Positions 32,507 to 34,750 of a stretch of DNA of 64,000 nt are shown one piece after another. A program made the position numbers and the translations under genes. Source of the DNA: Neodothiora populina (Eukaryota). The stretch lies in assembly GCF_041146345.1 (NCBI RefSeq), contig NW_027191410.1, forward strand, positions 992,001 through 1,056,000. The letters are read 5' to 3'. Numbering within the stretch: the first letter of the stretch is position 1; every line of letters starts with the position of its first letter. A model generated the notes under the pieces. The model searched no databases and had not been told where the DNA came from. It was given only the letters and a program-made list of their open reading frames with translations.

Positions 32507-33489
32507 ATGTCGGGCGCAGGTGTATGTGAAGTGCTCGTACTCATCCACGACTAGCTATAACTCACCATGAACACAGAACAGGGAAGCCGTCTTCCCGACC
32601 CGTCAGTCACTGGGAGCCATGAAGAGCAAGCTCAAGGGTGCCCAGACCGGCCACGATCTCCTGAAGCGCAAGAGTGAAGCTCTGACAAAGTATGTCACGA
32701 CCATCCATCCACAATACTCTCCGTAGTCTGACATGCAATTCCCTCCTCCTCCTCCACAGACGTTTCCGAGACATCACCAAACGCATCGACGAAGCAAAGC
32801 GCAAGATGGGCCGCGTCATGCAGATCGCCGCCTTCTCCCTGGCCGAAGTGAGCTACGCAATCGGCGGCGCAGGAATCGGCTACCAGATCCAGGAATCCGT
32901 GCGCTCTGCAAAGTTCCGCGTGCGGACGAAGCAGGAGAACGTGTCCGGTGTCTTCTTGCCGCAGTTCGAGTCCTTCCAGGCCGAGGGCGCCAGTGATTTT
33001 GGTTTGACGGGTCTGGGTAAGGGTGGTCAGCAGGTCCAGAGGTGTAGGGAGACGTACACGAGGGCGGTCGAGACCTTGGTCGAGCTTGCCTCTCTGCAGA
33101 CTGCCTTTGTCATTCTCGATGAGGTGATCAAGGTCGTCAATCGCAGAGTCAACGCCATGTATGTGTCTTTATATACCATTCCCCACGATACATACACACT
33201 AACCCTGAATCGCAGCGAGCACGTCATCATCCCACGCACAGAAAACACCATCAAGTACATCAACTCGGAACTCGACGAACTGGACAGAGAGGAATTCTAC
33301 AGACTCAAAAAGGTCTCGGGCAAGAAGGAGAGAGACGCCGAGGAGGAAGAGGCAGAGCTCAAGAAACAGAGACAGAAAGCCGAATCCTCGGATTCGCCTG
33401 CTGCTGTATCAAAGCCGGACGAGGAGGCCGAGAACCACGTCCCCAAAGATGTCTTGGGAGAAGGGGAGGAAGAGGATATCATCTTTTGA
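32507..33489 (+). CDS. VMA8: V-type proton ATPase subunit D
   Basis: MSGAG|NREAVFPTRQSLG, GHDLLKRKSEALT, ENVSGVFLPQF, LASLQTAF, NRRVNAIEHVIIP, LDELDREEFYRLKK. Three introns. Confidence 0.97.
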
Positions 33490-33723: not shown

Positions 33724-34750
33724 TTATTGCCTCTGGAACGTGACTCTGATGGAGCTGTCGCCTAACGTCATACCAGCAGTCGCCTCCTTTGCACTGATTG
33801 CGCCATCTTCTCCCTCCTGTCCAAACAGTCAGCAATGTGTCACGGACCAACCGACGTTCATAAACTTACATATTCGACGAATGCGATACCCTTGCGTCCA
33901 GGCACGGTACGAACTTCCTTGAACCCGGCGAAGCGCGAGAAAATCGCCGTGAGCGCGCTGACATCGTAGTCCTCGGGAACCTGGCGGATGAACAGAATCT
34001 TGTTCGGCGGCAGGTACTCGTCTGGCACAACTCCAGCGCCAGGGCCAGAAGCTCCCTTGAGACCTGCTCCACGCGCTGCTTTTGGTGCTGAAGGTCTGCC
34101 GGCTTCCACTTCTGGTGCGCCAGGGGCGGGACGCTTGAGGTTCTTTGCTGCTTCGGCTGCTTCCATGGCTTGCTTGCGCTCTGTCGTCCCACGCCGTCAG
34201 TTTTTCTTTCGTGGCGATCTTTTCCTTGTGAAGTATGCGCCTACCTTTCTCCGCCTTGCGATGGCGCTTATGCTGCTCCAGATCGTCTTCGGTACCCTCT
34301 CTTGTCACTGTGGCATCGCTCTTGGTCTTTGCAAAGTCCAGCGACATGGACTTGCCGAACAACTCGAACCCATTTACTTCATCGATGGCGTTCTCTGCAC
34401 TCTCCACCGAGTCAAAGACGATAAAGGCCTGTCCACGACGCTTGAGACTGCGCTTCGCGACAATGTCGACGATGTTGCCGTATTCGCTGAAGATTTCACG
34501 CAGAGCTTCGATCAGTGCTGGGATCTTGACGCTTTCTTCGAGGTTCCTGGCCTGTGTGATGGACAACCATCCGTGTTAGTCTTCTCCGCTAGCTTTTGTG
34601 CTATTATTGCCGAAGCTAATGGACGTTTCCTCACGTATACACTGTTCATATATATCTAGTTAGTGAATCAGGCACTCTTCCGCTCTGTTCGTACGATGTG
34701 CAATGTACGAACGTTGCGTTTGGCGCCGTGCCTTCATTGGCGCTCGCCAT
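33724..34750 (-). CDS. MUD1: U1 snRNP protein A (two RRMs; U1A/Mud1/Usp102 type)
   Basis: Exon 1 MASANEGTAPNAT, a 7-nt microexon, RRM1 (TVYARNLEE...IFSEYGNIVDIVAKRSLKRRGQAFIVF...FAKTKSD) and RRM2 (PPNKILFIRQVP...FKEVRTVPGRKGIAFVEY...IRVTFQRQ*). Two RRMs favour U1A over the fungal single-RRM U2B''. Confidence 0.88.
34687..34712 (-). promoter_or_regulatory. Candidate U1A-binding RNA hairpin (U1 stem-loop II mimic) overlapping the 5' splice site of U1A intron 1
   Basis: Minus strand GTTCGTAC-ATTGCACATC-GTACGAAC: perfect 8-bp stem, 10-nt loop starting AUUGCAC, C-G closing pair. The first 6 nt are the splice donor. Confidence 0.75.

Follow-up and report, generated by a model that had tools for sequence, protein, structure and literature searches.

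Can the gene of a spliceosomal protein control its own splicing by carrying, on its first 5' splice site, a copy of the RNA site at which the protein docks in the small nuclear ribonucleoprotein (snRNP) U1? This question is raised by a hairpin in intron 1 of a U1A-type gene of the fungus Neodothiora populina, which we analyzed within a window of 64,000 nt (contig NW_027191410.1 of assembly GCF_041146345.1, positions 992,001-1,056,000; coordinates below are those of the window). As judged from sequence comparison, the hairpin is a conserved, gene-specific and probably cis-regulatory RNA element, the form of which matches the U1A docking site and the position of which masks a splice signal. We consider it probable, at roughly 70%, that free fungal U1A binds the hairpin, locks its stem and keeps U1 off the donor, which would result in intron retention and decay of the transcript.

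The hairpin on the intron 1 donor

The hairpin (34687..34712, minus strand) is composed of a 5' arm GUUCGUAC (34712-34705), a loop AUUGCACAUC (34704-34695) and a 3' arm GUACGAAC (34694-34687), which correspond to the minus-strand DNA segments GTTCGTAC, ATTGCACATC and GTACGAAC, respectively. The stem is a perfect 8 bp and the loop has 10 nt, with C34705-G34694 as the closing pair. The 5' splice site of intron 1, GUUCGU (34707..34712, minus strand), is located entirely within the 5' stem arm, so that donor positions +1 to +8 lie in the stem. The sequence confirms in these respects an earlier sequence-only reading of the locus, which had described an 8-bp stem, a C-G-closed 10-nt loop and the GUUCGU donor as the 5' arm.

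The isolated 26-mer folds with -8.6 kcal/mol, a value equalled by 2 of 200 dinucleotide shuffles (z -2.98), and the hairpin is present in the minimum-energy folds of its 131-nt and 96-nt contexts. Minimum-energy folds also weakly suggest a possible 3-bp extension helix, in which CGC (34718-34716) pairs with GCG (34683-34681) and flanks the hairpin across 3x3 internal loops; similar helices are predicted in two related loci, L003 and L024. The duplex of the donor with the U1 5' end (with an assumed U1 motif) is predicted at only -1.6 kcal/mol, compared with -8.6 to -10.1 kcal/mol for the hairpin. By this energy model, the intron 1 donor is weak. The hairpin contains in addition a second GT, within GUACAU at 34706.

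Intron 1 (34642..34712, 71 nt, GTTCGT...CTAAC...CAG) follows a 38-nt exon 1 (34713..34750) that begins with the ATG at 34750-34748. It possesses a branch-point-like CTAAC at 34663-34659 and the acceptor CAG at 34644-34642, and its ends match the coordinates 34712-34642 assigned earlier. Splicing of intron 1 yields the junction ...NAT|VY..., as in orthologues, and the RNP2 Val-Tyr is supplied by a 7-nt microexon, UGUAUAC (34635..34641). Intron 2 (34552..34634, 83 nt, GTGAGG...CTAAC...CAG) separates the microexon from exon 3 (34245..34551), which encodes the first RNA-recognition motif (RRM1) of a U1A-type protein according to the PDB search and Pfam RRM_1. The remainder of the gene model, also on the minus strand, comprises intron 3 (34181..34244), exon 4 (33870..34180), intron 4 (33817..33869) and exon 5 (33724..33816), which ends with the stop codon at 33726-33724.

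The donor and microexon of the window are modelled by homology, on the basis of the conserved RNP2 tyrosine and of the microexon in related loci. RNP2 reads VY or LY in 21 of the other 25 aligned orthologues. Besides the window, 14 of the 40 related loci introduced below (L001, L005, L012-L015, L024, L027, L028, L033, L035, L036, L038 and L039) possess a 7-nt microexon NGTNTAY between AG and GT, which encodes the RNP2 Val/Leu-Tyr and is flanked by two short introns; the second intron is lost in a Leotiomycete-like clade and in one unnamed clade. The deposited N. populina (Dothideales) protein P0001 equals the window translation from RNLEES to the end. Its model places the donor six bases downstream, at the GUACAU, and omits the microexon, giving TFARNLEE where our model gives TVYARNLEE. 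The 'TF' signature of P0001 also occurs in the named orthologues P0002 and P0035, which suggests that several public annotations mis-model the GTTCGT-type donor and the microexon. Deposited models miss the microexon and misplace the donor; taken together, hairpin and microexon offer an annotation signature for the correct gene model.

The gene product has 251 aa. In the PDB, its RRM1 matches human U1A with E 2.2e-23 and 2.3e-21, human U2B'' with E 2.2e-20 and S. pombe Msl1 (111 aa) with E 2e-11, and Pfam RRM_1 is called on the RRM1 exon with E 4.6e-13. The beta2-beta3 loop RSLKRRGQAF is near-identical to RSLKMRGQAF of human U1A, and the linker after RRM1 is basic. Pfam calls no second RRM on the exon 4 piece alone; the C-terminal RRM region aligns to orthologues, which gives a two-RRM architecture of ~250 aa. 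Database relatives are likewise two-RRM proteins of ~250 aa, with the source names U1 snRNP protein, usp102 and U1A/U2B''/SNF family. S. pombe Usp102p is described as a 28-kDa two-RRM component of the purified U1 snRNP and a homologue of Mud1p and U1A (PMC1865046). The protein is of the two-RRM U1A (usp102/Mud1) type and not of the short fungal U2B''/Msl1 type. A U2B'' identity, which the sequence-only reading had kept in view as fatal to its proposal, does not agree with the match to human U1A at 2e-23 versus Msl1 at 2e-11, nor with the two RRMs.

Conservation and specificity in related loci

Forty loci were collected from metagenome contigs by a profile of 26 orthologous proteins (A1), a search unbiased as to the hairpin. 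The donor hairpin is found in 19 of them, at the same ...AC|GT junction and in the same phase. Seventeen carry AUUGCAC in the loop (L003, L004, L006-L010, L016-L019, L021, L024, L026, L029, L030 and L034), and two carry AUUGUAC in the same hairpin, being one sequence on two contigs (L022 and L023). In six further loci (L020, L025, L033, L035, L036 and L038), a shorter hairpin lies at another place within introns 1 and 2; its loop reads AUUGCAC or AUUGUAC, the latter variant occurring in L038, as it does in L022 and L023. No hairpin is detected in 11 fungal loci (L001, the intronless L002, L005, L012-L015, L027, L028, L031 and L039), one locus is cut off 100 nt upstream (L011), and three are distant (L032, L037 and L040). 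On these counts the hairpin is widespread but not universal.

Some of the hairpins located away from the donor touch another splice signal. In L033, the RRM1 of which is 96% identical to a Penicillium protein, a 5-bp hairpin covers the AG that forms the 3' splice site in intron 2. In L038, a 7-bp hairpin with the loop AUUGUACCUC lies over the intron 1 branch point, and the hairpin of L020 abuts the branch point. The remaining ones are located 11 nt past a donor (L025) or within intron 2 (L035 and L036).

A protein tree of 73 rows (L015 and L023 omitted, P0001 replaced by the window model) has an unresolved backbone and is used for its supported groups only. The window joins Aureobasidium (support 94) within a group that also contains L003 and L024 (support 90). 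Eight donor-hairpin loci belong to a Leotiomycete group together with Hyaloscypha (support 94), and eight further ones form an unnamed group (support 89). A Lecanoromycete group (support 96) contains L038, with its branch-point variant, and three hairpin-less loci. In a Eurotiomycete group (support 99), L033, whose hairpin lies at the 3' splice site, is accompanied by the intronless L002 and by the truncated L011. The donor hairpin is therefore present in at least three supported clades, its counterparts on other splice signals occur in other clades, and it is missing in several.

The 19 donor-hairpin sequences represent 12 distinct hairpins. Their stems form two classes, GUAYGUGUC/GACACRUAC and GUUCGUAC/GUACGAAC, the second of which comprises the hairpins of the window, L003 and L024. 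When the hairpins are anchored on the loop, 105 of 108 stem cells are canonical, and the closing C-G is kept in all 12. With the exception of a single C>U change, loop positions 1-7 do not vary, whereas positions 8-9 are free and position 10 is always C. An ungapped, loop-anchored alignment of 11 of the 12 distinct hairpins (A5; L007, with its 11-nt loop, was left out) shows pairing in 97.0% of 99 cells and both-sided change in eight of nine pairs. Its covariation score of 0.768, compared with 0.222 for shuffled alignments, is reached by none of 500 shuffles, and slid registers pair in 3-57% of cells. An event independent of the split between the classes is found within the first class, where C-G has changed to U-A and L010 shows the U-G intermediate. 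Donor-anchored alignments (MAFFT, A2; model-fitted, A4) misplace three class-B rows and understate the signal, with 87.3% pairing and two double-change pairs. In contexts of ~97 nt, the hairpin belongs to the minimum-energy fold in 12 of 12 cases, with whole-context z-scores ranging from -4.41 to +0.32.

The proteins encoded by L003 and L024 are 62% and 50% identical to that of the window, yet the 26-nt hairpins of these loci differ from that of the window at 0 and 1 (loop) positions, respectively. The hairpins remain near-identical at such protein distances; the intron element is more strongly constrained than the protein. The comparison of orthologues extends to related fungi what the sequence-only reading had seen in a single gene, with a conserved loop, a covarying stem and the hairpin on the same donor in 19 of 40 loci.

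The hairpin arms also form a palindrome in the DNA, so that the opposite strand reads as a hairpin as well. This property would suit a DNA-level feature, such as a DNA protein-binding site or an inserted U1 remnant devoid of RNA function, and the modest whole-context fold z-scores would suit a coincidence. We regard both as highly improbable. The compensatory changes preserve RNA pairing, including non-palindromic G-U pairs (L010, L006, L021 and L007), and the loop is invariant and strand-specific. The element moreover persists across at least three supported clades and, in further ones, is shifted to another splice signal within the U1A gene. As for an inserted remnant, the window hairpin matches the U1 family of Rfam (RF00003, positions 51-89, stem-loop II) with just 9.7 bits (E 1.3, e-value scan). 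A U1 gene or U1 pseudogene fragment was rejected on the same ground, the gathering score of the family being 69.5, and no match in the window reaches the gathering level of any Rfam family. A window match to MIR5304, far below threshold, was rejected as well, and an e-value match of L016 to a microRNA family is taken as chance.

The specificity of the element was examined by scanning both strands of the window and the 40 loci, 200,807 bases in total. Among 45 ATTGCAC sites, 21 are placed in a 10-nt loop that is enclosed by a stem of 3 bp or more; 20 of these 21 lie on the sense strand in the first introns of U1A genes, and all 20 are closed by C-G. Since nearly all stemmed sites share this one position and strand, a chance origin is excluded as far as sequence statistics can tell. 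A covariance model built from 19 sequences returns 20 matches with E <= 3.6e-07, all in U1A introns, of which 19 are its own training sequences and the remaining one, L023, duplicates the trained L022. The window hairpin scores 39.8 bits (E 1.4e-07) with this model, and nothing elsewhere in the scanned bases is better than E 0.37, the value of a match at 33154-33200 on the plus strand that is taken as chance. In the window, only 1 of 38 GTTCGT sites, the intron 1 donor, bears a hairpin with an AUUGCAC loop, and the 3' region of the gene contains no ATTGCAC.

These data bear on which factor reads the hairpin. The energy of the stem alone (-8.6 to -12 kcal/mol) beats that of the weak U1:donor duplex and could slow splicing without any protein, and the RRM1 domains of U1A and U2B'' are closely related, as seen from the human U2B'' match above. 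The element might accordingly be a conserved donor regulator read by a factor other than U1A (a U2B''/Msl1 paralogue or another protein), an RNA-only brake, or a temperature- or helicase-sensitive gate. We consider explanations of this kind unlikely. A gate made of RNA only would have no need for seven invariant loop bases and a fixed C-G closure while positions 8-9 drift. The U2-type loop is AUUGCAG, and a scan of the 40 loci for ATTGCA[CG] finds no hairpin with G at position 7, which is always C; this speaks against U2B'' as the reader. Moreover, every instance of the element belongs to the U1A gene itself.

Proposed feedback on free U1A

U1A and its hairpin are a textbook RNA-protein pair. 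The fungal element shares with stem-loop II of U1 (RF00003, ~51-89) the 10-nt loop starting with AUUGCAC and the C-G closure, the consensus loop of the family being CAUUGCACUucG, and the loop AUUGCACUCC, found in six loci, is presumably identical to the human U1 loop. The pattern of loop constraint fits the rule by which U1A reportedly recognizes its site (work of Oubridge, 1994, and of the Hall laboratory). Unlike U1 snRNA, the window element has no U1 5' end, stem-loop I, Sm site or further U1 parts, and it is placed inside the intron of a protein-coding gene. U1A is described as binding AUUGCAC where this motif forms the 5' side of either a hairpin loop or an internal loop (PMC4253089, PMC6325900). 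In vertebrates, U1A occurs free as well as snRNP-bound and represses its own pre-mRNA via two stem-loop II-like sites in the 3' untranslated region (UTR) (PMC5071671).

In the proposed feedback, U1A outside the U1 snRNP would bind the loop via RRM1 and clamp the stem. With the stem clamped, donor positions +1 to +8 would be paired and unavailable to the 5' end of U1 snRNA, and intron 1 would then be retained, with the reading frame ending at a UGA after 34 codons. The retained transcript would yield no U1A, and nonsense-mediated decay would probably clear it. Once U1A runs low, the hairpin would breathe, the weak donor would be used and U1A would be made, which amounts to negative feedback on free U1A.

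Translation of the unspliced RNA is consistent with this scheme. When intron 1 is retained, the frame runs for 34 codons and then meets an in-frame UGA as codon 35 (34646..34648, minus strand; TGA 34648-34646), close to the earlier estimate of about 35 codons. In all 19 sequences examined, retention brings the frame to an early stop, after 18-64 codons. Together with the conservation, the covariation and the U1A-type protein, this early stop lends sequence-level support to the autoregulation that the sequence-only reading had put forward.

U1A could also bind the hairpin with another outcome, namely a donor switch, a nuclear pre-mRNA reservoir or a coupling of the two introns that flank the microexon. 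The second GT within the hairpin, used by the deposited model, would provide an alternative donor, and L003 and L024 have a GUAAGG a few bases beyond the 3' arm. The microexon layout makes introns 1 and 2 interdependent, and in other lineages the hairpin occupies the 3' splice site or the branch point instead of the donor. Nevertheless, 17 loci carry the unchanged hairpin on a single intron, with neither a microexon nor a conserved second donor, and the common denominator of all arrangements is a masked splice signal, with retention leading to an early stop throughout. An outcome other than retention and decay is therefore, in our estimate, improbable, slightly more so than a reader other than U1A. 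The GUAAGG of L003 and L024, located 5-8 nt past the 3' arm and absent from the window, could serve as a fallback or decoy donor in these two loci.

Several observations weigh against autoregulation by free U1A through intron retention. The donor is assigned by homology, while the deposited model uses another one. Most of the both-sided changes in the stem stem from one split between the two classes, which leaves few independent events. In 2 of 12 cases, the 96-98-nt context folds no better than its shuffles (L024, z 0.32; L017, z -0.07). In L022 and L023, the hairpin is perfect except that its loop reads AUUGUAC; C5 of the loop is critical for human U1A, and binding at this site would be weak if C5 is as critical in fungi. 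On the protein side, N15R, K20S, R83S, Q85D and D90K (numbering from the RRM1 alignment) differ from the RNA-contact residues of human U1A. The comparison with U1 relies on the Rfam consensus loop, and S. cerevisiae U1 is described as being without the U1A site (PMC6325900), so that fungi can lose it. Finally, the 11 fungal loci without a detectable hairpin include the Lecanoromycete-like L005, L014, L015 and L027 besides the intronless L002. Because of these loci, the feedback appears to be dispensable or replaced in several lineages.

The distribution of the hairpin also permits a broader view, to which we give somewhat less than even odds. By lineage, the hairpin is located at the donor (Dothideomycete-like and Leotiomycete-like loci), at the 3' splice site (Penicillium-like locus) or at the branch point (lichen-fungus-like locus). 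Fungi may thus possess a portable sensor of free U1A, an AUUGCAC hairpin that is kept, moved or re-invented so as to mask an available splice signal in the first two introns. The splicing feedback would in that case be old and widespread in Pezizomycotina, and the vertebrate 3'-UTR element would be independent and convergent. If this is true, U1A would represent convergent autoregulation by snRNA mimicry at two RNA-processing steps.

Comparison with known systems and further observations

The proposed fungal feedback resembles the polyadenylation inhibition element (PIE) of vertebrates in that copies of stem-loop II in the U1A pre-mRNA are bound by the N-terminal RRM of free U1A, with less U1A mRNA as the result (PMC5071671, PMC5829640). 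The two differ in three respects. The PIE belongs to the 3' UTR, where it immediately precedes the poly(A) signal (PMC5071671), whereas the fungal element is found in intron 1, at a distance of 38 nt from the ATG. The PIE consists of two internal-loop sites for two U1A molecules (PMC5071671), whereas the window and 18 of the 19 donor-hairpin loci present one terminal hairpin each, L009 having two. The PIE inhibits poly(A) polymerase via U1A residues 103-119 (PMC5071671), whereas the step predicted for the fungal element is U1 recruitment and splicing. Being neither in the 3' UTR nor two-site, the fungal element is PIE-like in outline and not a PIE. One PIE box probably reads AUUGUAC, the loop variant of L022, L023 and L038. 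For plants, the PIE feedback is reported to be absent, as is binding of Arabidopsis U1A to the 3' UTR of its own transcript (PMC5829640).

The autoregulation of yeast ribosomal proteins (RPL30/L32 and other RPS/RPL genes) presents a different likeness, as the protein blocks its own transcript's splicing at a structure near the 5' splice site that resembles its site in a stable RNA (PMC8216456). These cases involve another protein and another RNA fold, and in the fungal U1A element the donor bases themselves are paired. The RPL30 structure is a kink-turn-like internal loop, and L30 lets U1 bind and blocks a later step. By analogy, the ribosomal-protein cases are the nearest in mechanism, and the vertebrate PIE is the closest in logic. 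Spliceosomal proteins also set their levels by alternative or unproductive splicing in the U1C/U1-70K and the U11-48K and U11/U12-65K circuits (PMC3798272, PMC5473595). The elements that snRNPs bind in these circuits are enhancer-like or represent alternative splice sites, in contrast to an snRNA-docking hairpin on the donor.

A full-text literature search, the scope of which left out subscription journals and unreadable supplements, found no description of a hairpin in an intron of a fungal U1A gene. One survey of fungal structured RNAs (PMC5640933) does not mention 'snRNP', and where it treats splice sites it deals with other motifs; another (PMC8216456) mentions none of 'snRNP', 'MUD1' and 'RRM'. 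The element looks undescribed, and autoregulation by mimicry of a stable-RNA binding site is a known principle. To our knowledge, the vertebrate PIE, acting on polyadenylation, is the sole known feedback of U1A. If our proposal is true, fungi would provide a second and mechanistically different one, in which the donor itself is the docking site. The hairpin would further constitute a very clean natural RNA switch, operated by a protein on a 5' splice site, and it would help to explain the matching of U1A to U1 snRNA in fungi.

Some related loci show further features. L009 possesses a second small AUUGCAC hairpin (L009:2283-2299) with a 4-5 bp stem and a 9-nt or 7-nt loop; it belongs to the 5' flank or UTR and precedes the main hairpin on the donor by ~150 nt. 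L014 and L015 contain an 8-9 bp hairpin, aaggtgtta/GCTGCAC/tgacacttt, in the intron after RRM1, ~328 nt after the start of the match. Its loop and 3' arm include a CTGAC branch point, and the loop is similar to AUUGCAC only in part; this hairpin may represent, in lichen-type fungi, a diverged relative of the element, or may have arisen by chance. The intronless U1A gene of L002 (L002:2501-3244), on a 54.7-kb contig with a Pyrenula-like best match, has no hairpin, and the feedback, if real, is therefore absent there.

Several Aspergillus database entries of 1390-1455 aa join a U1A RRM to tubulin folding cofactor D (P0021, P0022, P0024-P0026, P0047, P0068, P0076, P0102 and P0117), and these are probably merged models of adjoining genes. 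Downstream of the U1A gene in the window, an open reading frame on the plus strand (32686-33489) may encode a V-ATPase subunit D (Vma8-type), with an intron read through in frame.

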